Source of the DNA: a virus
Direction: 5' to 3' (one strand)
Length of the DNA: 64,000 nucleotides
IMG/VR virus record: IMGVR_UViG_3300042673_002211
Location: 9,231 to 73,230 of that record
Shown: in pieces, positions 18,987 to 32,355 of the stretch
Position numbering within the stretch: position 1 is the stretch's first letter
How the letters are laid out: the number at the start of each line of letters is the position of its first letter
Made by a program: the position numbers and the translations under genes
The notes under the pieces: generated by a model
What the model saw: the letters and a program-made list of their open reading frames with translations, nothing else
What the model was told of the DNA's origin: nothing
Database searches by the model: none

Positions 18987-20096
18987 ATGAAAAACTTATC
19001 CAAAGAAGAGTTATTAAATAGAATGGAGGCTATTAATCGTAGCAACGCTCTTATTTATTTTGATCTTAATGGTTTTATTCTTGGAGTGAATTCTATCTTT
19101 TTAACAACAATGGGTTATAAAGAGGACGAACATGAAAAAGTTGTTGGTCAGCATCACAGTATTTTTGTTGCTCCTGAATATGCACAATCAGAAGAATATA
19201 AAAGGTTTTGGAAAAAGCTAGGAGAAGGTAACTTTCACGAAGGTGAATTTGAAAGAATAAAAGCAGACGGAAACATTATCTATCTCCAGGCAACTTATAA
19301 TCCAATACTTGATGAAAATGGTGTTGTAACTAAGGTAATGAAGGTTGCTTCTGATATTACTACAACTGTAATAGCAAAAAATGCAATTAGTGCAATAAAT
19401 AAAAGTAATGCTATTATATATTTTGATTGTGATGGTTATATACTAGATGCAAACTCCATATTTTTAGAAACAATGGGGTATAACAAAAACGATTTAGATA
19501 AAATTGTTGGGAAGCACCATAGTATTTTTGTAGGTTATGAGTATGCTAAATCCGAAGAATATAAAGGATTTTGGCAAAAGCTAAAAAGTGGTAAATTTTT
19601 TGAGGGTGAATATGAAAGGATGAGAGTAGATGGTTCTTCTATTTATTTAAAAGCATCCTATAATCCCATAATTAGCAACGATGGAACTTGTAAAAAAGTA
19701 ATGAAAATTGCTACTGACATTACTGATACGATTACTATTAAAAAGCAAGTAGAAGAACTTTCTAAAAATTTACAGGTTGAATTAGATAATTCAAATAAAC
19801 TTAAATTATCAATAGAAATAGAAAAAAATAATGCACTAGAAGACTTAGATGCAACTATAAAAAAAAGCCAAAATGAACTAATTAAAACTATTGTTAAATC
19901 AGCTCTATTTGTAATCATGAGTGTTGGGTTTATTACCACTATTATGTACTCATTTGCAATACTTAATGATAGAGATACTCAAATAATTGGTTCAACCTGG
20001 AGTAACATGTTTAGCGTACTTTTAACGAATGCATTTTCAATTGTAGGCACAATTATGGGTATTAAATATGCAACACAAGAAGATAAAAAAACTTAA
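18987..20096 (+). CDS. Tandem PAS-domain protein with coiled coil and two C-terminal transmembrane segments
   Basis: Two ~120-aa repeats (AIN.SNA.IYFD..G.IL..NSIFL.TMGY...VG.HHSIFV...EEYK.FW.KL..G.F.EGE.ER...DG..IYL.A.YNPI....G...KVMK.A.DIT) of the chemoreceptor PAS type. No MCP, kinase or GGDEF output domain. Confidence 0.85.
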   Translation: MKNLSKEELLNRMEAINRSNALIYFDLNGFILGVNSIFLTTMGYKEDEHEKVVGQHHSIFVAPEYAQSEEYKRFWKKLGEGNFHEGEFERIKADGNIIYLQATYNPILDENGVVTKVMKVASDITTTVIAKNAISAINKSNAIIYFDCDGYILDANSIFLETMGYNKNDLDKIVGKHHSIFVGYEYAKSEEYKGFWQKLKSGKFFEGEYERMRVDGSSIYLKASYNPIISNDGTCKKVMKIATDITDTITIKKQVEELSKNLQVELDNSNKLKLSIEIEKNNALEDLDATIKKSQNELIKTIVKSALFVIMSVGFITTIMYSFAILNDRDTQIIGSTWSNMFSVLLTNAFSIVGTIMGIKYATQEDKKT

Positions 20097-22828: not shown

Positions 22829-23362
22829 ATGCCTTTTAATTGCTTTTTAGATACATTTATTACTCAACCCGAAGAGGTTGTCGATAAGGAACTATCTAAA
22901 CTCAAACCACTCAATTATAACAAGTTTATGTGGTGGCGTACCCACTCTCAACCTGGTGTACCATTGGGTAAACGCGCTCCATTAAAAGATCGCATTTTAA
23001 ATGGTGATTTTGATTTTTCATGTTACTATTGGCAAGCACAATCTGCTGCGATACAAGCGCGTAAAAAACTCAATTTAGACAAGGATGACTACCAGTCACA
23101 ATACGAAAAAGTTACTGTTGACGTTGCTCGTTATCGTCGTTTGCTAGCTGATTTTGATAAGGAAGAAAATTCTCGTATCGAGGCTTTACTTGATGCGTTT
23201 ACTGTCTCGTTTAAAATCAGTCGCGAAGAGTTACTTGATCGGTTATGTAACTGGTCTTATGATTTGCTATCGTTTTATGAATCGCTTGATGAGTTTGGTA
23301 CTCCAACCTCAACTGAAATTCGTAAACGAGGTCGTCCAAAGAAACTTGCCTACCCCAAATAA
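22829..23362 (+). CDS. Hypothetical protein with C-terminal AT-hook-like motif
   Basis: Ends RKRGRPKK. Confidence 0.6.
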   Translation: MPFNCFLDTFITQPEEVVDKELSKLKPLNYNKFMWWRTHSQPGVPLGKRAPLKDRILNGDFDFSCYYWQAQSAAIQARKKLNLDKDDYQSQYEKVTVDVARYRRLLADFDKEENSRIEALLDAFTVSFKISREELLDRLCNWSYDLLSFYESLDEFGTPTSTEIRKRGRPKKLAYPK

Positions 23363-23380: not shown

Positions 23381-24169
23381 ATGATTAAAGTATCTCACGA
23401 AACCCCCCTATGTTTACTAGGGGATAGTCGTTTATTTAACGACTATGATTATTGTCTCCCACATTTGCTCGATCAAGAGCAAGGATATAAAGACTATTTT
23501 ACAACCTCTAAAGCACAAGGGCGCTATATTATAATGGATAATTCGCTTCATGAATTAGGTGAAGCATACGATAGTGATCGTCTATTATACTGGATTGATC
23601 AGTTACGTCCTAATGAGTTTATTGTTCCTGATGTCTGGGAAAACCGAGACAAATCAGTGGTTAATGCCCGCCAATGGTCTCAGTATAAATTACCTAAAGG
23701 GGTAGAAAAAGTAGCAGTAGTTCAAGCAACCACAATTCATGAAGCATCTACTTGTTACCAAACCTATAAAGATTTAGGTTATAAAAAGATTGCATTCTCG
23801 TATGGCGCTTCCTATTACAATGATGTAGTACCTCACCCTAATAAAAATTTAGGTAAAGCACTTGGTCGCCTATCCGTAATTTCAGCTCTACATAGAACTG
23901 GAACTATTGATTCAAACGATCGTGTACATCTATTGGGATGTCAAGTACCACAAGAATTTGGGTGGTATCGTGGCTTCAATTTTATTGAATCTATTGATAC
24001 ATCTAACCCAGTAATGGCTGCTTTAGAGGGAATGCGTTATTCAAATTCAGGTTTGATTGAAAAACCTAAAGCAAACATGAACGACTATTTCTTTATGTTA
24101 TCTGATCAAGTTGATTATGAACTTTTATCTTATAATCTTCTAAAATTCCGTGAAATCAACGATCTATAA
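23381..24169 (+). CDS. TGT-fold, DpdA-like guanine transglycosylase (putative DNA base exchange)
   Basis: IIMDNSLHE, PDV, VAVVQ, VHLLG, ESIDTS match the TGT barrel motif order; directly upstream of queC. Confidence 0.65.
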   Translation: MIKVSHETPLCLLGDSRLFNDYDYCLPHLLDQEQGYKDYFTTSKAQGRYIIMDNSLHELGEAYDSDRLLYWIDQLRPNEFIVPDVWENRDKSVVNARQWSQYKLPKGVEKVAVVQATTIHEASTCYQTYKDLGYKKIAFSYGASYYNDVVPHPNKNLGKALGRLSVISALHRTGTIDSNDRVHLLGCQVPQEFGWYRGFNFIESIDTSNPVMAALEGMRYSNSGLIEKPKANMNDYFFMLSDQVDYELLSYNLLKFREINDL

Positions 24170-24199
24170 ACCCGACACATTTAAATATTTATAACAAAC

Positions 24200-25030
24200 A
24201 TGGCAAAACACGTAGTAGTTTCATTATCCGGGGGAATGGATTCCTCAACATTATTGCTTAGAGCACTAAGCGAATTTGATACTGTAACAGCAGTATCGTT
24301 TGACTACGGTCAAAAACACCGAGTAGAACTTGATCGAGCACGGACCCTAGTTAACTACTTACTTATTCATAATAAAATAATTAATTATCAAGTAATTAAA
24401 CTTGATGGGTTAGCTGATCTACTTAACTCAGCTTTAGTAACAGGTGGGGGTGAAATACCTGAAGGACACTATGCTGAAGAAAACATGAAAGCAACAGTTG
24501 TTCCTAACCGAAACAAAATCTTCAGTTCAATCACTCAAGCGATTGCTTTATCTATTGCTACTGAGAAAAAAGAAGAATGTTCTATTGCTTTAGGTATTCA
24601 CGCCGGTGATCACGCTATTTATCCTGACTGTCGTCAAGAGTTTCGTGACGCTGATGATCATGCTTTCCGAGTAGGTAACTGGGATAGTGAATTAGTATCA
24701 TACTGGACTCCATATCTTGAAGGCGATAAGTTCACTATCCTGAAAGACGGAGAGAGATTATGTGAAGAACTAGACCTTAATTTTAATCAAATTTATAAAC
24801 GTACTAATACTTCTTATAAACCACTCCAACATACTATTGAAACACACCCTGGATGGACTGAACTAGTATGGTTTAGTGATTATAAGTCAGCTTCTTCAGT
24901 AGAACGAGTTGAAGCATTTATTAAGCTAGGACGTCCTGATCCTGCATCTTATGCAGATGAGACCGGTCCTGTAACTTGGGAACATGTAGTAACAGAAGTA
25001 ACTAAAGTACTAGAAAGTCATGAGCGATAG
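24200..25030 (+). CDS. queC: 7-cyano-7-deazaguanine synthase
   Basis: SLSGGMDSST, FDYGQKH..E, TVVPNRN, HAGDHAIYPDCR.EF. Confidence 0.93.
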   Translation: MAKHVVVSLSGGMDSSTLLLRALSEFDTVTAVSFDYGQKHRVELDRARTLVNYLLIHNKIINYQVIKLDGLADLLNSALVTGGGEIPEGHYAEENMKATVVPNRNKIFSSITQAIALSIATEKKEECSIALGIHAGDHAIYPDCRQEFRDADDHAFRVGNWDSELVSYWTPYLEGDKFTILKDGERLCEELDLNFNQIYKRTNTSYKPLQHTIETHPGWTELVWFSDYKSASSVERVEAFIKLGRPDPASYADETGPVTWEHVVTEVTKVLESHER

Positions 25031-25250
25031 AGATAATTTATATAGAGATATCTTTAATGGTGCAAACAAAAAACACTGGAAAGAAGAACAAAAAAACAAA
25101 AAAATGAAAAAAATCGAAACTTTATTTTTAAAGTATGGACACTGGAGCTTTTTATTTAGCTCACTTTTTGAAGCATCAAGTAATAGTTGGTTAACAGCTG
25201 CTGCTCTTATGTTTCTTTTTATTAATTATCAATATTCAAACAAACAATGA
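25020..25250 (+). CDS. Small membrane protein
   Basis: Two short hydrophobic segments; coupled to neighbours. Confidence 0.5.
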   Translation: MSDRDNLYRDIFNGANKKHWKEEQKNKKMKKIETLFLKYGHWSFLFSSLFEASSNSWLTAAALMFLFINYQYSNKQ

Positions 25251-25522
25251 AACAATTATGGTATTTCTCAGCGGACTGGTGTGGTCCCTGCAAACAATTC
25301 GGTCCTTTAATGGACGAACTCGCTAAACCCTGTTTAGCTAGACCTCAAGGTATATCTATTAAAAGACTTAATATAGATTACACCCCAGATGCAGCTAAAA
25401 TTTATAAAATTCAAAGTGTTCCTACAGTTATTCTAGTGGAAGACGAACAAGAAAAAGCACGCTTTACAGGAACACGTACAATGCAACAAGTAATCGACTT
25501 TTATAACCAAAAGAATGGGTAG
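25247..25522 (+). CDS. Thioredoxin
   Basis: ADWCGPCK, SVPT. Confidence 0.92.
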   Translation: MKQLWYFSADWCGPCKQFGPLMDELAKPCLARPQGISIKRLNIDYTPDAAKIYKIQSVPTVILVEDEQEKARFTGTRTMQQVIDFYNQKNG

Positions 25523-25979
25523 TTTTAGATCCACTAAAGTATTTGATGGCTATTCTACAGTCTTCCGTCAGTGGAAAGCTGAAGGAACTCATTGTCGTTT
25601 CCTACATGGTTACGGGGTAAGCCTTAGAGTATGGTTTGAAGGTGAACTTGACGAACGCAATTGGGTTTGGGATTTTGGAGGCATGAAACGTGCTAAAAAT
25701 ACCATTGATGGTAAAAATCCTAAAGAATGGATGGATTATATGCTAGATCATACCACCATTGTAACGGAGGATGATCCCGAACTAGAAGGATTTAAAGCAA
25801 TGGAACGATTTGGAGTTATCCAACTTCGAATTCTCCCAGCTGTTGGAGCAGAACGTTTTGCTGAATATTTTTATAATAAACTAAATGATTTTGTTCAAAT
25901 TGAAACAGAAGGACGCGTAAAAGTAGTTCAAGTAGAATTCCGCGAAAACGAAAAAAACACAGCATTTTATAAAGGATAA
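25515..25979 (+). CDS. queD: 6-carboxytetrahydropterin synthase
   Basis: HCRFLHGY, WVWDFG, LDH, FRENEKN. Confidence 0.88.
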   Translation: MGSFRSTKVFDGYSTVFRQWKAEGTHCRFLHGYGVSLRVWFEGELDERNWVWDFGGMKRAKNTIDGKNPKEWMDYMLDHTTIVTEDDPELEGFKAMERFGVIQLRILPAVGAERFAEYFYNKLNDFVQIETEGRVKVVQVEFRENEKNTAFYKG

Positions 25980-25981
25980 TT

Positions 25982-26764
25982 ATGGCAATAAAAAGAATAG
26001 AAGACTATAATAAAATTCTACCTATCGTAGAACTATACACTTGTATCCAATCAGAAGGTAGCCGTGCAGGTCGTCCTACTGTTGCTGTCCGCACCACGGG
26101 TTGTACCCACCGCTGTTACTTCGGTGAAGGTGGTTGGTGCGATTCATGGTACACAAGCATTCACCCTGAAAAAGGCAAATACAGCTTCCAGGATATTATT
26201 AATATTTACGATGCTAATCCTGAAATTAAGGAGATGATGCTAACGGGAGGTTCTCCTACTATGCATCCCACTATTGTAAATGAACTAACCCATTTTGCAA
26301 ATGAAAGACAAATCATCATTACTATTGAAACTGAAGGCTCTGCTTTCGTCGAAACAGATTACCCTCTTGGCCTTATTAGCTTCAGCCCTAAATTTAGTAA
26401 TAGCATACCTGTTTTGGGGGCTACTACACCCTTAGGAAGTATTGTAGATCAACGCTTTATTGACACTCATAATCGCTTACGTCTAAATAAAGATTCTATC
26501 AAGCAATCAATGGCTTATCACTCAGATTATCACATGAAAGTAGTAGTTAACCCTGTTGAGCGTCCAGATGTTTGGACTGAAATTAGAGCATTTATGGATG
26601 AACTGGAGGTACCAAAAGACAAGATCTGGATCATGCCCCCGGGTGATAATCGTGAAGAACTAATCCGTGTTTACCCTATGGTGATTAACTGGTGTACTGA
26701 TAATATGTACAACTTCACAGGCCGTGAACACATCATTGCTTTTGATACTAAACGTGAAGTCTAA
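25982..26764 (+). CDS. queE: 7-carboxy-7-deazaguanine synthase (radical SAM)
   Basis: IQSEG..AG.P.V.VRTTGC..RC...WCDSWY, LTGGSP, IETEG, SPK. Confidence 0.92.
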   Translation: MAIKRIEDYNKILPIVELYTCIQSEGSRAGRPTVAVRTTGCTHRCYFGEGGWCDSWYTSIHPEKGKYSFQDIINIYDANPEIKEMMLTGGSPTMHPTIVNELTHFANERQIIITIETEGSAFVETDYPLGLISFSPKFSNSIPVLGATTPLGSIVDQRFIDTHNRLRLNKDSIKQSMAYHSDYHMKVVVNPVERPDVWTEIRAFMDELEVPKDKIWIMPPGDNREELIRVYPMVINWCTDNMYNFTGREHIIAFDTKREV

Positions 26765-26943
26765 TGCCCTACATAATTCTAAAACACACTACTATACAGG
26801 ATACCCCCCGTACTATTTTAGTAAATGATAGCGAGGGTATTGCTATGGAATTTGATTCACTAGATTATGCTCTTAAGCTAACTGAATTATTTCAGGCTAA
26901 TACTGCCTCAGGTAATATTTACGAAGTAAAAGAAATAAAATGA
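26764..26943 (+). CDS. Small hypothetical protein (59 aa, not in track)
   Basis: TAATG coupling to queE; MPYIILKH...EVKEIK; overlaps the next start. Confidence 0.55.
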   Translation: MPYIILKHTTIQDTPRTILVNDSEGIAMEFDSLDYALKLTELFQANTASGNIYEVKEIK

Positions 26944-27122
26944 TACCACACGGATACCTACAAAACCTACATCAACTTTGGGCTCTTAAAGTTCTTGAAC
27001 CAGCTGGAGTTATAGCCGCTATTTATCCTTATGGATATAAGTTAAGTTATCTTAGTTTAGATGGGATAGGGATAGAAAAAGAAAATGAAAAATTTGAATT
27101 TCTTTATGGCAAAAGAATCTGA
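26940..27122 (+). CDS. Small hypothetical protein
   Basis: ATGA-coupled ORF. Confidence 0.5.
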   Translation: MIPHGYLQNLHQLWALKVLEPAGVIAAIYPYGYKLSYLSLDGIGIEKENEKFEFLYGKRI

Positions 27123-27240
27123 AAATATAGTTTGCCACAACTGTTTAGATACTGTGGCTTTTAAAACAGCATTTAGAGTAGAGAGGAATAACTTTGGTAT
27201 TCCTCACTTTGTTTGGATTTGTAAAAAATGTAAAAAATGA
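27106..27240 (+). CDS. 44-aa zinc-finger-like protein (not in track)
   Basis: MAKESENIVCHNC...WICKKCKK; stop overlaps the HPRT start. Confidence 0.55.
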   Translation: MAKESENIVCHNCLDTVAFKTAFRVERNNFGIPHFVWICKKCKK

Positions 27241-27761
27241 TAGAATTATATTCAGCACACGATATAGATATTAAAACTAAAATTATCGCCCAACAAATCT
27301 CTCGAGAACACCAATCCGATTCCACCCCAGTAGTGATGGTAGGGGTATTAAACGGAGCATTTATGTTTTACTCTGATCTAGTTAGCAACATGGACATTGA
27401 TGTAGAATGTGACTTTATTCGAGTTAAATCATATTCAGGTAAAGAACGAGGTAGCATCCAACTAACTAAAGACGTTGAAACATCAATACATGGTAAACAC
27501 GTTTATCTAATAGATGATATTTTCGATTCAGGAGCTACTATGAAATTTTTAGCTAAATATTTTAATTTAAAAGGAGCTAAAACAATTCATATCGTTACTT
27601 TAGTAAAACGAGCTAAAAATGAATTTAAACCTATTGAATCACATAGCTATGTAGCTTCATTTAGGCATGCTTTCGAATGCGAAGACGAATGGTTAATTGG
27701 TTATGGGATGGATTCAACCGGAGGTTATAAAAGAAATTTGAAGTCAATTTTTGCTCTGTAA
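27237..27761 (+). CDS. hpt: Hypoxanthine/guanine phosphoribosyltransferase
   Basis: GVLNGAFMFYSDL, KSYSG, PRPP loop LIDDIFDSGAT, IGYGMD, RNL. Confidence 0.9.
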   Translation: MIELYSAHDIDIKTKIIAQQISREHQSDSTPVVMVGVLNGAFMFYSDLVSNMDIDVECDFIRVKSYSGKERGSIQLTKDVETSIHGKHVYLIDDIFDSGATMKFLAKYFNLKGAKTIHIVTLVKRAKNEFKPIESHSYVASFRHAFECEDEWLIGYGMDSTGGYKRNLKSIFAL

Positions 27762-27780
27762 AGATTGTTTCGTACATTTA
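27750..27780 (+). promoter_or_regulatory. Bacteroidota-type promoter before folE
   Basis: TTTG-N19-TACATTTA. Confidence 0.65.
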
Positions 27781-27795
27781 CGTAAAATAAGTTAT

Positions 27796-28500
27796 ATGGA
27801 AAACATTGAAAATAAACGTCGTAAGAAGTACGACAATATAGAGTGTGTTCAACCCGGCTTTGCCAATGGTGTTGCAGGAGATTTCCCACTCTCGGATGAG
27901 CAAAAACAACAGATGGTAGAAGAGGCAACCGAGCATTTTGGTAAGTTTCTTGATGCTTTAAAATGCGATTGGAGAAACGACCCTAATTCAATGGAAACCC
28001 CCCGTCGCGTAGCTAAAGCATACGTTTACGATTTGTGGAAGGGCCGCTACGAAAAATTCACTGAGATTACTTCATTCCCCTCAGATGGTTATGATGGGAT
28101 TGTTATTGAACGTAACATACCTCTTACCTCTATGTGTTCGCACCATCACCAAACTATTAATGGTGTAGTTCATATAGGATACATTGCAGGTGAAAACGGA
28201 CGAGTTATTGGATTAAGTAAACTAAACCGCATTGTAGAACATTTTGGACGTAGAGGAGCTATTCAAGAGCAACTTACAACAGCTATTCACCAAGCAGTAG
28301 ATAAGGTTTGCGAAGATAATCGGGGTGTAATTGTAACTGTGGTTGCTACTCACTCTTGCGTATCTTGCCGAGGTGTAAAACACCAAGGAGCAGCAATGGT
28401 AACTACTAAAGCCTCTGGAGTGTTTATGGACAATAATAACCAAGCACGTAAAGAATTCTTCGACTCACTTAAAATCAACAACGGACATGTCTCAATTTAA
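27796..28500 (+). CDS. folE: GTP cyclohydrolase I
   Basis: ETPRRVAK, SMCSHH, GLSKLNR, IQEQLT, HSCVSCRGV; ATG at 27796 preferred. Confidence 0.95.
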   Translation: MENIENKRRKKYDNIECVQPGFANGVAGDFPLSDEQKQQMVEEATEHFGKFLDALKCDWRNDPNSMETPRRVAKAYVYDLWKGRYEKFTEITSFPSDGYDGIVIERNIPLTSMCSHHHQTINGVVHIGYIAGENGRVIGLSKLNRIVEHFGRRGAIQEQLTTAIHQAVDKVCEDNRGVIVTVVATHSCVSCRGVKHQGAAMVTTKASGVFMDNNNQARKEFFDSLKINNGHVSI

Positions 28501-29104
28501 AGATTTAATCACTATTGAACTAATTAATAGTTTAGGTAAACTTCGCTCATTCAATGATCGAGATGAAGCCACTCGTAATCCTGAAATGGATTGGGCTGAA
28601 ATTACAGCAGAAAGAATCGCAAATTTATTTAATTCACAATATGTACCATTCGTCAGCGAGGTTGAAGAGTTCAATAGCTTAATGAATAAACCAAACAACT
28701 ATGAACCAGTTATACCAGCCAAACATGAATGGGATTTTATCTACAACTTCATTCTGGAAGAACTTGAGGAGTATAAACATGCTTGCGAAACAGAAAACAT
28801 CGTGGAAGTTTTGGATGCACTGTGTGACATTGCTTACGTATCCATTGGGAATGGTGCTATGCTTCATGGTCTTAAGGATAAAATTTGGCCAGCCTATATG
28901 GAAGTTCAGGCATCAAATCTTTCAAAAGCTTGCTCTACACAAGACGAGGCACAAAAGACTGTTGAAATCCGTTCACAAGAACAAGGCGAAGGCTGTCACT
29001 ATGAACAGGTTGTTGACAAGTATATTGTATATCGTACTCGAGACAGAAAGGTAATGAAATCAGTAAATTACTTCAAACCAGATTTGAAGCAATTTTTTAG
29101 CTAA
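28487..29104 (+). CDS. MazG-like / PRA-PH family NTP pyrophosphohydrolase
   Basis: EELEEY, EVLDALCDIAYV, EVQASNLSK, KVMKS.NYFKPDL. Confidence 0.8.
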   Translation: MSQFKDLITIELINSLGKLRSFNDRDEATRNPEMDWAEITAERIANLFNSQYVPFVSEVEEFNSLMNKPNNYEPVIPAKHEWDFIYNFILEELEEYKHACETENIVEVLDALCDIAYVSIGNGAMLHGLKDKIWPAYMEVQASNLSKACSTQDEAQKTVEIRSQEQGEGCHYEQVVDKYIVYRTRDRKVMKSVNYFKPDLKQFFS

Positions 29105-30942
29105 TGAGTTATAAATCTTGTTTTGTTCAACCCCTTAAGGATAAAAACTATAAAGTTCACTTATGGGATGATGGTGGTTATCAAACATTTACGTGGCAAT
29201 ACTCTGCTTATCTAGAGTGCGATAGTCATGATGCTGATAAAAACATTAGAGGACTTAAACAAGAATCTCTTCGTAAAATAAACGGATGGGATAAAGACAA
29301 TCCTAAATTACATTTTCACGATATGAGACCTTACCAAAGGTTTTTAATCGATATGTACGGGACAAATGACGAGCCTTCCGTAACCCACCAAGAAGTATTC
29401 TTTGATATCGAATGTGAAATGGGAGGAGCGCTTACAGAAGACTATATTCGAAGTGCTCCAAAACCAATCACCTCAATAGCTTGGTGGCACAAGCAAAAAG
29501 ACGAATGGAAAATTCTTATTTTAGATAAAAAAGGTGAGCTACAACAAGATAAAGAGGGTAACAGAGAGATTATTCCTGTTAAAACAGAAAAAGCCTTACT
29601 TGAGGCATTCATAACACACCTCCGCGAAATTAATCCGGATATACTAGTTGGTTACAATAGCGATTACTTTGATATTCCTTACCTATACTACCGTATTTGT
29701 AATGTATTTGATAAAGAAGTAGCAAACATGCTGTCTCCAATCGGAATTGTAATGGATGAATCCGAATGGAATAGAGACGGTTGGCTTAAAATTGCGGGTA
29801 TCGAGTCTTTAGACTACATGAAATTCCATAAAAAGTTTAGCTTTAAGGACGAACCATCATATAAGCTAGATGCGTTAGGAAAAAAGTACGTAAACATGGA
29901 AAAAATTACGTACGAGGGTAGTTTGGATCGTTTATTCAAAGAAGATAAACAAAAGTTTATAGCCTATAACTTTAGGGACGTAGAGATTTTAAAGGCATTG
30001 GACGAGAAATTCCAATACCTACCTTTGATAAAAAACCTAGCACATAAAGGTAAAATCAACTATTCAGACGTCTATAAAAATAGTATGATCCATGACGGAG
30101 CTATTTCAGCTTACTTATTATCTCAAGGTATTATACCTCCTCCAAGAGATAGAAACCCTATTATTAAAAAGAATTACGCAGGTGGTTACTTGTTTTGCCC
30201 TAAAGCAGGACTATATAAGTATATGTTTGACGAGGATTTAACCTCGCTATACCCTTCTATTATTAGGTCTTTAAATATTGGTAAGGAAACGTTAGTGGCT
30301 CGGATTTTAATTCCGGATGAGAAAGTAGTAGTAGAAAATAAAGAGATTTTTAATTGCAGGTACGGGTTAAATGATCTAATGAAAATGGATCCTAATCTTG
30401 AGTTTACGGTTCAAAATGCTAAACGTAAAACCATGCAGATGAAAGTCTATGAGATTATAAATCTAATTAGGGAATCTGGATTAGCGGTCTCGGCAAACGG
30501 GGTTTTATATAGAACAGATTTTGATTCGGTACTTAAAACGATTTTGGCAAAATGGTTTGACGAGAGAGTCGTCTACAAAGATAAAATGAAGCAAGCCTAC
30601 AAAGCGGGCAACAAAGCAGACGGTGAAAAATTTCACTTGATGCAACATACCATGAAAATCCTTTTGAACTCTCTATACGGGGCTACAGCTTTGGGTTCAT
30701 TTAGATATGGTAACGTAATTTTGAGTGAAAGTATTACTTTATCTGGTCAACGGATTATCCAGGAATCAGCTTTGTTTGCTAACACTCATATGAATAAAGT
30801 AATGAAGGGAGAAATAGAATTTTCTCAATCCCCCCAACCCAAATATCAAGAATCTGGTTCAATTCCAAATGAATTAAAAGAAACAATTTGGGATGAGAAT
30901 AGTAAAAATTTTAGAAATTTAGCAACACACAATTTTGGATAA
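29104..30942 (+). CDS. Family-B DNA polymerase, N-terminal part (exonuclease plus motifs A and B)
   Basis: ExoI FDIECE, ExoII YNSDYFD, ExoIII YNFRDV, DLTSLYPS, KILLNSLYG; motif C absent. Confidence 0.92.
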   Translation: MSYKSCFVQPLKDKNYKVHLWDDGGYQTFTWQYSAYLECDSHDADKNIRGLKQESLRKINGWDKDNPKLHFHDMRPYQRFLIDMYGTNDEPSVTHQEVFFDIECEMGGALTEDYIRSAPKPITSIAWWHKQKDEWKILILDKKGELQQDKEGNREIIPVKTEKALLEAFITHLREINPDILVGYNSDYFDIPYLYYRICNVFDKEVANMLSPIGIVMDESEWNRDGWLKIAGIESLDYMKFHKKFSFKDEPSYKLDALGKKYVNMEKITYEGSLDRLFKEDKQKFIAYNFRDVEILKALDEKFQYLPLIKNLAHKGKINYSDVYKNSMIHDGAISAYLLSQGIIPPPRDRNPIIKKNYAGGYLFCPKAGLYKYMFDEDLTSLYPSIIRSLNIGKETLVARILIPDEKVVVENKEIFNCRYGLNDLMKMDPNLEFTVQNAKRKTMQMKVYEIINLIRESGLAVSANGVLYRTDFDSVLKTILAKWFDERVVYKDKMKQAYKAGNKADGEKFHLMQHTMKILLNSLYGATALGSFRYGNVILSESITLSGQRIIQESALFANTHMNKVMKGEIEFSQSPQPKYQESGSIPNELKETIWDENSKNFRNLATHNFG

Positions 30943-30963: not shown

Positions 30964-31227
30964 ATGGAAAATAAAATTTCAAAACAAACAATCAGATCAG
31001 GAGTATCTATTTTTTTATTAGATGAAAAACTTGATAAAGATACTATCATCAGTAAATCTGAAAAATGGTCAGATAAAGAGATATTATTCTTTAGGAAAAT
31101 GCTTAGACAAGGGGGGCGCTTTAGTATTAAAGGAGAAAAATTCTATATTACTGTTCCCGAACAAATCTATAACCAAAAAGGTGAGATTGAAGGAGTATTC
31201 CATAATGAAGAGGAAAGCAACTCTTGA
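30964..31227 (+). CDS. Hypothetical protein between the PolB halves
   Basis: ATG ORF with A-rich leader. Confidence 0.65.
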   Translation: MENKISKQTIRSGVSIFLLDEKLDKDTIISKSEKWSDKEILFFRKMLRQGGRFSIKGEKFYITVPEQIYNQKGEIEGVFHNEEESNS

Positions 31228-31429
31228 TCTACACAGAGTTAAACACGCTGATGTTGAGGATAAGTTGATTGATTTTTTCTTTTGGCAAAAATTTGATTTT
31301 AAAGGGATAAATATTATAACCGGTAATTCTAAAAAAATGCAAGAAATAGTTATGGATTTCCTTGACAAATATGAATTTAAGTATTATATTTCGTCTCATA
31401 ATTTAGGAGAAATAGTAGTAGTAGGATGA
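31205..31429 (+). CDS. Stand-alone Smr-domain-like protein
   Basis: TLDLH.V...V...IITG.S...N.G matches the Smr pattern; ATG at 31205; ATGA overlap with the PolB C-terminal part. Confidence 0.7.
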   Translation: MKRKATLDLHRVKHADVEDKLIDFFFWQKFDFKGINIITGNSKKMQEIVMDFLDKYEFKYYISSHNLGEIVVVG

Positions 31430-32355
31430 TTAATTTAGAAAGTACACCTTGGTTTATTTGCAAGGAAGGGGACACTAACTATTGTGCCTACGTTGATACA
31501 GACTCCAATTATTATAATGCCGAGCCTATACTTAGACATCTTTATCCTAATTTTGATGAAATGGGTGAAGAGGAAAGAGACAACAAGCTTGAAGAAATTG
31601 CCCTTAAATATCAAGACTTAATTACGGATTATTATTCCGAAATGTCTACAGACGTATTTAACGTTCCTGTTCATCATTTTGATATGAAGACCGAATGTAT
31701 AATTCGTTCGGCTTACTTTAGAGCGACTCGAAGATATGCTCAATGGATTACTAAAAAAGAAGGTGAAGTTAAAAACGAGCTAGATATTAAAGGTCTGGAG
31801 TTTATGAAAGCTAACTTCCCACCAATTTTTGGGAAATTTTTTAATAAGATTTTAAAATCTGCTCTTACAGGTACCCAACAAGGTGAAATTGATAAATGGC
31901 TTTTAGATTTTAGAAAATATATAATGTCTAAAGAATGCGATATTGCAATTTTAGGTAACCCAACTTCGGTAAAAACCCTAAATGCTTATATTCAAAGTGC
32001 ACCTAAACCTGGAGAAATGTTTTCTTTAATTAAATCAAAAGCACCAGCTCCAGTTAAAGCAGCTATTAAATATAATGATTTATTGTCGTTTTGGGGTCTA
32101 GATAAACAACATTCTCGTATTGTACAGGGTGATAAGATTAAATGGATTTATTTAAGAGACAATCCATATAGAATTGAAGCACTTGCATTTTTAGATTTTG
32201 ATATGCCAGAAAAGATTCGTATATTATTGGATGAATATGCAGATAAACACAAATCATTTGAATCGATTTTGGAAAGTAAGCTAGAAGGTTTTTACCATGA
32301 CCTGGGTTGGTCATTAAATTTGAACCCATATAGAAATATGTTTTTTAGTTTTTAA
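31426..32355 (+). CDS. Family-B DNA polymerase, C-terminal part (motif C, thumb)
   Basis: YVDTDS, RRYAQW, LDIKGLE, GDKIKWIYL. Confidence 0.92.
   Translation: MINLESTPWFICKEGDTNYCAYVDTDSNYYNAEPILRHLYPNFDEMGEEERDNKLEEIALKYQDLITDYYSEMSTDVFNVPVHHFDMKTECIIRSAYFRATRRYAQWITKKEGEVKNELDIKGLEFMKANFPPIFGKFFNKILKSALTGTQQGEIDKWLLDFRKYIMSKECDIAILGNPTSVKTLNAYIQSAPKPGEMFSLIKSKAPAPVKAAIKYNDLLSFWGLDKQHSRIVQGDKIKWIYLRDNPYRIEALAFLDFDMPEKIRILLDEYADKHKSFESILESKLEGFYHDLGWSLNLNPYRNMFFSF

Follow-up and report, generated by a model that had tools for sequence, protein, structure and literature searches.

A predicted DpdA3-type 7-deazaguanine DNA modification cluster with an embedded purine phosphoribosyltransferase in an uncultured aquatic phage

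The DNA analysed here, a 64-kb stretch (the window) of a 73,230-bp viral contig (G000; CheckV completeness 45%), carries at positions 23381–29104 a cluster of genes predicted to make a 7-deazaguanine and to exchange it for guanine. The cluster and its neighbouring genes all lie on the + strand. At its head is a gene for a TGT-fold transglycosylase of the DpdA3 subfamily (23381–24169), a predicted guanine/7-deazaguanine exchanger, followed by genes for QueC (24200–25030), QueD (25515–25979), QueE (25982–26764), an Hpt-type 6-oxopurine phosphoribosyltransferase (HPRT; 27237–27761), FolE (27751–28500) and a MazG-like, all-alpha NTP pyrophosphatase (28487–29104). A family-B DNA polymerase (PolB) starts at 29104, directly after the cluster. 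The original prediction had named the TGT/DpdA-fold gene, queC, queD, queE and folE in this region, with hpt and a MazG-like gene embedded among them and PolB next to them. Pfam, PHROG and NCBIfam scans, tblastn and a fold model located every one of these genes there, together with a thioredoxin gene (25247–25522), four small open reading frames (ORFs) and a split of PolB that had gone unmentioned. Searched by megablast, 50,697 phage records gave no match to the region. Our best explanation, to which we give about even odds as a whole, including the guanine salvage described below, is that an uncultured tailed phage carries here a module of the DpdA3 type for the hypermodification of its DNA with a 7-deazaguanine. 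This phage falls within a large aquatic clade that has Flavobacterium phage immuto as a relative. It adds a new member to the DpdA3 group, one that newly combines 7-cyano-7-deazaguanine (preQ0), predicted to be the end product, with an Hpt-type phosphoribosyltransferase (PRTase) and a split PolB.

The transglycosylase gene gave no Pfam TGT match, just a weak match to DUF6610. It does match phrog_19058 (E 7e-41) and, by tblastn, the 'DNA guanine transglycosylase' of phage immuto (38.5% identity, E 4e-52), gp056 of CP220 (34%, E 2e-37) and CGPG_00065 of phiST (21%, E 9e-7), each alignment covering at least 92% of the length. As described in Hutinet 2023 (PMC10516641), the DpdA3 subfamily was defined on the immuto, CP220-type Campylobacter and phiST proteins. 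Placement of the gene among the DpdA subfamilies, which the original prediction had proposed, thus led to DpdA3. Since sequence searches of the PDB with DpdA3 and with the MazG-like protein gave nothing useful, the folds of both were predicted. The AlphaFold2 model of DpdA3, built from 60 homologues, has a pLDDT of 97.8 and matches TGT, ArcTGT and DpdA 7ui4 at a Foldseek probability of 1.00 (E 3e-8 for TGT 2ash and 1.5e-6 for DpdA 7ui4). D53, D206-x-S208-x-P210 and H183-x-L185-G186 are invariant among the 60 homologues, and D84 is conserved in at least 90% of them. By motif and not by residue-level superposition, D53, D84 and D206 are candidates for the catalytic aspartates of TGT enzymes. Based on these matches and on the model, we assign the product to DpdA3 with a predicted TGT TIM-barrel fold. 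It is encoded together with FolE, QueD and QueE.

The enzymes of the preQ0 pathway were recognised by profile matches. QueC, which would convert 7-carboxy-7-deazaguanine (CDG) to preQ0, matches PF06508 (E 2.5e-37); QueD, the 6-carboxytetrahydropterin synthase, PF01242 (E 3e-16) and phrog_2389 (E 1e-37); QueE, the radical-SAM CDG synthase, phrog_2076 (E 1.4e-46) and, under the curated cut-off, TIGR03365 (E 1.7e-13); and FolE, the GTP cyclohydrolase I, PF01227 (E 2.7e-43) and phrog_2197 (E 4.6e-59). FolE may start at a TTG at 27751 or at an ATG at 27796. QueC is 70% identical to its immuto counterpart and has a divergent C-terminal third: solved QueC structures align only to residues 3–159 and leave the C-terminal 110 or so residues unmatched. 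The cysteine cluster that usually binds zinc in QueC proteins is not evident.

No QueF was detected, as had been stated at the outset: PF14489 stayed below its cut-off, with cross-hits confined to FolE, in the contig of the window, in a 170-kb relative with a complete genome (G001) and in a 269-kb sister phage (G002). tblastn with immuto queries found neither QueF nor DpdN homologues. An amidotransferase-fused QueC (Gat-QueC) is likewise absent, the Pfam scan showing no amidotransferase domain in the window's QueC. As the cluster has no QueF, DpdN or similar tailoring gene, and as its QueC shares 70% identity with the immuto enzyme, which must supply preQ0 (the fdPreQ1 DNA of immuto requires it; PMC10516641), the DNA base of the phage is predicted to be dPreQ0. 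According to Hutinet 2023 (PMC10516641), dG is fully replaced in the three measured DpdA3 phages CP220, phiST and immuto. By analogy, dPreQ0 probably stands at or near every G here.

The HPRT gene matches TIGR01203 (E 1e-38), and its closest solved relatives are bacterial Hpt/HGXPRT enzymes. Thirty clade members share residues D93, D94, D97, G99, S65, Y66, G155, G157 and D159 without exception, and the conserved motifs (the acidic PRPP motif including the third Asp, the Ser-Tyr loop and GYG-x-D) align with those of solved Hpts. These residues presumably have their usual roles, and we take the third Asp of the motif, which binds phosphoribosyl pyrophosphate (PRPP), to contact N7. The dN/dS against six relatives is 0.06–0.23, which is the range of the core que genes and indicates purifying selection. 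By its motifs, the protein looks like a working 6-oxopurine PRTase. Among its 482 homologues, the best 120 are metagenomic, with at least 51% identity; the closest cellular homologues found have 36–37% identity. Two metagenome-assembled genomes (MAGs), of Lacinutrix (L038) and of a Microbacteriaceae (L039), carry a phage que–HPRT–PolB cluster with an HPRT 48–54% identical to that of the window; these are probably phage contigs binned with bacteria. A recent capture of HPRT from a host was ruled out by the metagenomic homologues, the phage cluster on the MAG contigs and the distance of the cellular matches. Judged by these relationships, the window's HPRT belongs to an old phage-borne Hpt lineage.

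A survey of hpt–que co-occurrence in phages, also proposed by the original prediction, gave a clear positive result. The window's HPRT, used to scan IMG/VR, returned 20 contigs with 59–95% identity. Genes of the same cluster are present on every one of them, and 19 have the HPRT–FolE neighbourhood; the remaining contig (L022) ends inside HPRT. For the close set, 100 loci of the clade were scanned with iterated local hidden Markov models, and 52 were considered informative as they contain QueE plus MazG or PolB (two pairs share a contig). The PRTase slot is filled by HPRT in 39 of these and by a Gpt-like PRTase in 11, never by both; two loci have neither (L094, L113). The Gpt-like enzyme is a small protein of the immuto gp211/phrog_8995 type, whose best NCBIfam match is the xanthine PRTase family NF006613. 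Where a locus has both genes, the PRTase adjoins FolE in 45 of 51 cases. In the distant set of 80 DpdA3 loci, 54 were informative for the PRTase; 34 have one, and it adjoins FolE in 27 of 35.

The link extends to other phages. A tblastn search with the phiST protein found the Gpt-like PRTase in 34 of the 50,697 phage records, and 21 of the 34 are among the 31 DpdA3-positive records (Flavobacterium 4/4, Cellulophaga 5/5, Campylobacter 12/14). The two other Campylobacter records are contigs of one phage whose PRTase lies on another contig. The same search gave no match in the Chryseobacterium, Bacillus and Weizmannia records with DpdA3-like genes, and BSP7_052, which stands in the PRTase position of Bacillus phage BSP7, matches no family. 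Several of the remaining 13 records were inspected. The gene order is dNMP kinase, FolE, PRTase in Brevundimonas phage MaInes and QueE, PRTase, one gene, QueD, FolE in Synechococcus phage BUCT-ZZ01. In Vibrio phage 1.207.B (Queuovirinae; L131 4800–5723, MG592577), the Gpt-like PRTase forms the N-terminal ~120 residues of FolE. Its motifs are RGG, FIDDIIDSGAT and WVVFPWE, Pfam detects the cyclohydrolase part only, and four sister Vibrio records match the PRTase–FolE region. In CP220 the PRTase lies two genes from a radical-SAM gene. A PF00156 scan of whole records missed this CP220 gene, which tblastn found, and therefore the link tally of that scan (3/5) understates the linkage. Our results indicate that the link between hpt and que genes is real and old, and that a purine PRTase is a regular, replaceable member of phage 7-deazaguanine clusters.

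The MazG-like protein matches PF01503 (31.5 bits, cut-off 21.3) and phrog_671 (E 3e-25). At E up to 0.01, Pfam gave no match to a MazZ-type family, only to PRA-PH (PF01503). It is 74% identical to gp208 of immuto (Immutovirus) over 153 residues, compared with 38.5% for DpdA3. E91, E92, E95, D110 and D114 are invariant in 26 sequences and form an acidic motif of the ExxE...DxxD type that presumably binds metal. The model (pLDDT 89.6) has its best fold match in DR2231 of Deinococcus radiodurans (PDB 2yeu, 2yf3, 5hva; Foldseek probability 1.0, E 1.7e-3), with a TM-score on target of 0.62–0.73 and the acidic motif invariant in the MazG-like proteins. Identity to DR2231 is 15–19%, and unlike it the MazG-like protein has an extra 52 residues at the N-terminus and a conserved beta-hairpin C-terminal part. 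DR2231 is specific for dUTP, a property that is not transferable to the MazG-like protein.

Like the PRTase, the pyrophosphatase can be replaced. In phiST, a different MazG/dUTPase-like gene stands directly after FolE. The MazG-like gene is absent from 12 of the 52 informative close-set loci, and in 11 of these 12 the PolB frame continues across the position of the split or is cut by the locus boundary. The three loci inspected (L083, L090, L092) have a 167-aa dUTPase/DCD-fold ORF between FolE and PolB (PF22769 E 1.6e-11, NF002598 E 2.9e-25), and the same gene occurs in the sister phage G002 (the contig of L091). Among 46 informative loci of the distant set, 25 have the MazG-like gene, 16 the dUTPase fold, none both and five neither. 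The genome of G002 encodes the cluster dUTPase/DCD-fold gene and a second, canonical dUTPase (C1:80974–81393, 259232–259633), which suggests that the cluster copy has another substrate. In G001, immuto and phiST no other dUTPase was found, so that there the MazG-like gene may simply be the phage dUTPase. Thus, the MazG-like gene may be the phage's dUTPase or may have a dedicated role such as the removal of dGTP. Z-genome phages (PurZ, MazZ, DatZ) and T4 with its dCTPase encode a dNTP pyrophosphatase beside the genes for the replacement base. The window cluster shows the same arrangement, with complete substitution expected, and differs from the Z-genome phages in having a base-exchange enzyme and no identified nucleotide-level synthase.

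Compared with immuto and other DpdA3 phages (PMC10516641), the window has the same DpdA subfamily and the same position of the cluster beside a DNA polymerase. The immuto gene order, given as QueD–QueE–PRTase–FolE–NTPase–DpdA3, is also similar, as are the sequences of QueC and the MazG-like protein. Unlike in immuto, however, DpdA3 stands at the cluster head and is preceded by an AT-hook protein, and the PRTase is of the Hpt type rather than Gpt-like as in immuto-type clusters. Differences from the known DpdA3 phages are the split PolB instead of PolA and the location of the AAA_28 kinase outside the cluster in the window's clade. The measured DpdA3 phages contain fdPreQ1, dDG or dADG, whereas the window, in which no QueF or DpdN was found, is predicted to use dPreQ0. 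A further parallel, by gene content and not by sequence, is with the tubercidin and toyocamycin clusters (TubE/ToyH; PMC6112128), in which a PF00156 PRTase accompanies FolE, QueD and QueE homologues. These clusters make free nucleoside antibiotics and have no TGT or DpdA, in contrast to the window with its DpdA3.

The AT-hook protein (22829–23362, 177 aa) has no Pfam or PHROG match and is found upstream of DpdA3 in related loci. Its C-terminal AT-hook, RGRPKK, is sometimes doubled in relatives, and the GRP motif occurs in 44 of 59 unique homologues. The protein may be a DNA-binding accessory, perhaps a DNA-targeting partner of DpdA3, or else a regulator. DpdA3 itself has 262 residues and nothing beyond the TIM barrel in the model; the family is mostly acidic, with an isoelectric point (pI) below 6 in 46 of 60 members (median 5.6). 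Among ten long DpdA3 representatives, two are fused to a formyltransferase (DpdN-like), two carry homing-endonuclease motifs, one carries DUF3310, and in the other five the extra part has no Pfam match; none of the ten is fused to a kinase, PRTase or NTPase. The homing-endonuclease fusions are probably gene-call read-through. As a side observation, Bacillus phages of the BSP7/BSTP group carry a DpdA3-like gene with 24–26% identity (L037 6336–9692, BSP7, MH707430), located after a Walker-A kinase-like ORF and before DNA polymerase I, downstream of QueC, QueD, QueE and FolE. By this gene content, the DNA of these phages may carry a 7-deazaguanine.

Taken together, these data lead to the following proposed mechanism. 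FolE, QueD, QueE and QueC would turn GTP into preQ0, and DpdA3 would place preQ0 in DNA instead of guanine. HPRT would turn free guanine, coming from the base exchange and from the breakdown of host nucleic acids, into GMP, and so top up the GTP drawn by FolE; in a fully substituted phage it would, by stoichiometry, recycle one guanine per exchanged base. The DR2231-like pyrophosphatase would trim the dNTP pool, with dUTP or dGTP as its target. We give an even chance to the view that the PRTase salvages guanine and refills the GTP that FolE consumes. This view is based on the replacement of HPRT by a xanthine/guanine-type PRTase, on the tie between the PRTase and FolE by adjacency and fusion, and on the presence of a PRTase in Vibrio phages of the group of phi-Grn1/phi-ST2, which were measured as lightly modified according to Hutinet 2023 (PMC10516641). 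The original prediction had offered, as one of two alternatives, that HPRT recycles guanine towards GTP in a loop suited to heavy substitution. The comparative evidence, to which the retained acidic PRPP motif and its third Asp also contribute, favours the salvage towards GTP. A role specific to heavy substitution is less likely, as the link also occurs in the lightly modified Vibrio group, which makes feeding of FolE in general the likelier role.

Several observations weigh against this interpretation. As stated in Hutinet 2023 (PMC10516641), DpdA3 activity had never been demonstrated, the authors' own E. coli tests being unsuccessful. Two kinase steps separate GMP from the substrate of FolE, and therefore adjacency or fusion to FolE does not reflect consecutive steps. 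The score of HPRT against TIGR01203, which is its best family by far, is 132.7 bits and thus below the curated cut-off of 150. In the profile alignment, R125 (conserved in at least 90%), beside a variable K124, stands opposite the Lys of 'LLDK' in E. coli-type and Leptospira Hpts, and N39 stands where these solved enzymes have Lys or Arg, so the base or pyrophosphate pocket is not fully canonical. We take the 'LLDK' lysine to contact the exocyclic O6. In 50 of 67 distant loci, an AAA_28 P-loop kinase follows DpdA3 within 3.5 kb, between DpdN and QueF, as part of a block DpdA3–DpdN–AAA_28 kinase–QueF that is conserved in the distant clusters (L132–L211) and in immuto (L001 12001–14927; the kinase is gp203). 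This kinase tracks the PRTase (both in 29 loci, PRTase only in one, kinase only in seven, neither in eight), in loci that are related to each other and do not give independent counts. Such a kinase speaks against the interpretation because a purely DNA-level exchange does not need one. Finally, the same Pfam family as HPRT, PF00156, includes the CDG-specific PRTase TubE (PMC6112128).

The last two points bear on the second alternative of the original prediction, in which HPRT ribosylates preQ0 and the analogue is inserted during replication. Here HPRT or the Gpt-like PRTase would join preQ0 or CDG to PRPP, as TubE does with CDG (PMC6112128); a P-loop kinase, ribonucleotide reductase and NDP kinase would then give the modified dNTP, the MazG-like or dUTPase-fold enzyme would remove dGTP, and the polymerase would insert the analogue. 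TubE is a demonstrated CDG-specific PRTase and toyocamycin clusters have a PRTase of this family too (PMC6112128). A modified-dGTP route was proposed earlier for Campylobacter phages (PMC6884629) and set aside once DpdA3 was found, and an ADG nucleoside was reported in CP220-infected cells (PMC10516641). The co-occurrence of the AAA_28 kinase with the PRTase, its presence also in G001 (133490–134014), the occurrence of a dNTP pyrophosphatase of either of two unrelated folds in 41 of 46 distant loci, never of both, and the non-canonical R125 and N39 of HPRT all agree with such a route. However, all these phages retain DpdA3 under purifying selection, although the route has no need for it, while the deazapurine antibiotic clusters with such PRTases lack an insertion enzyme (PMC6112128). 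HPRT retains the third Asp of the PRPP motif. Moreover, Vibrio phages that are relatives of the lightly modified phi-Grn1/phi-ST2 carry the PRTase–FolE fusion, and a route through the nucleotide pool is improbable in such phages. We consider pre-replicative incorporation unlikely. A related option is that DpdA3 swaps guanine on dGMP (or dG/dGTP) and not in DNA, with the MazG-like enzyme making dGMP from dGTP as MazZ does, a kinase rephosphorylating the product and the PRTase recycling guanine. The complete replacement of guanine would be typical of pool-level pathways, P-loop kinases lie beside or near DpdA3 in immuto, CP220, phiST, MA9V-3 and BSP7, CP220 has an HD-domain and kinase gene upstream of DpdA3, and, as noted above for Hutinet 2023 (PMC10516641), action of DpdA3 on DNA had not been demonstrated. 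The small size and lone TIM barrel of DpdA3 and its mostly acidic family also agree, although overall protein charge is a weak indicator. Yet in the window's own clade the kinase is ~70 kb away from the cluster (in G001), and the AT-hook protein directly upstream of DpdA3 fits action on DNA. To our knowledge, every characterised TGT or DpdA acts on a polynucleotide. Exchange at the nucleotide level thus appears distinctly unlikely.

HPRT and the MazG-like protein could also be ordinary nucleotide-metabolism genes that merely share a replication module with the que genes. Members of the wider MazG-like family, with 25–38% identity, are found in Corynebacterium, Microbacterium, Polaribacter and Tenacibaculum phages, the PDB titles of DR2231 name a MazG-like NTP pyrophosphohydrolase in structures with dUMP and dUMPNPP, the MazG-like protein may be the only dUTPase of G001, immuto and phiST, and the cluster stands beside the polymerase in several lineages. 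This explanation has to contend with the replacement of the PRTase by a member of another PRTase family in the same slot, its adjacency and fusion to FolE, and the near confinement of the Gpt-like PRTase to phages with que genes. Furthermore, G002 keeps the cluster dUTPase-fold gene despite a canonical dUTPase elsewhere, and the MazG-like proteins of the window and immuto are far more similar than their DpdA3 proteins (74% vs 38.5%). We regard a chance association as improbable.

Guanine salvage beside a DpdA3 that acts on DNA remains our preferred reading, in line with Hutinet 2023 (PMC10516641), where post-replicative insertion was inferred from the presence of DpdA3, its activity not being shown. 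A broader proposal, which we put forward tentatively and hold to be rather doubtful, is that DpdA3 systems achieve guanine replacement at the pool level and not by simple post-replicative editing. In such systems a pyrophosphatase (MazG-like, dUTPase-fold or HD) may strip dGTP, the PRTase and the P-loop kinase may handle intermediates, and DpdA3 may exchange the base on the nucleotide or work alongside the polymerase. If true, this would be the guanine counterpart of the logic of Z-genome phages and of T4 hydroxymethylcytosine, and would account for the restriction of 100% replacement to DpdA3 phages.

Irrespective of mechanism, three kinds of gene recur in phage 7-deazaguanine clusters and can be replaced there, namely those for a purine PRTase, for a dNTP pyrophosphatase and, in many cases, for a kinase. 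We found neither the PRTase–que link nor this wider pattern in print, although the supplements of Hutinet 2023 may already record some of the neighbours. Neither Hutinet paper (PMC10516641, PMC6884629) uses 'phosphoribosyl' in its main text, and 'kinase' is absent from the main text of the former. For the question of how DpdA3 phages replace every guanine, the recurrent genes provide concrete enzymes to assay. Since the clade is large, with no fewer than 595 IMG/VR loci and with 1539 clusters when grouped at 50% identity, the answer would apply to an abundant group of aquatic phages. With the window, a genome type predicted to be fully substituted with dPreQ0 would join those known, and the PRTase could serve as a practical marker of 7-deazaguanine clusters.

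The remaining genes of the cluster are small. The thioredoxin (PF00085 E 1.6e-16) lies between QueC and QueD in the window and is found in nearly all related loci of the clade; it might supply reducing power to ribonucleotide reductase or to the radical-SAM reaction. Upstream of it, a 76-aa ORF (25020–25250) matches no family and is 60–95% conserved in related loci. Three ORFs of 59, 60 and 51 aa (26764–27240) between QueE and HPRT have no Pfam match and are variably conserved in relatives; the last one shows a CxxC...CxxC pattern.

PolB is divided into an N-terminal part with the exonuclease and palm (29104–30942; PF03104, PF00136; phrog_262 positions 61–568 of 856) and a C-terminal part (31426–32355; phrog_262 positions 565–841 of 856). 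The split, at about profile position 568, is caused by an insert of ~480 bp with two overlapping ORFs of 87 and 135 aa (30964–31429) that match no family and are conserved in the subclade. The split is kept across the subclade, and in the sister subclade PolB is a single open frame of about 865–890 aa. By eye only, the 135-aa ORF shows an Smr-like 'LDLH...ITG' pattern. Elsewhere in the window, positions 18987–20096 encode a 369-aa protein without a PHROG match, which has two internal repeats of ~115 residues, PAS-like by eye, and a hydrophobic C-terminus; endolysin and holin genes come next.

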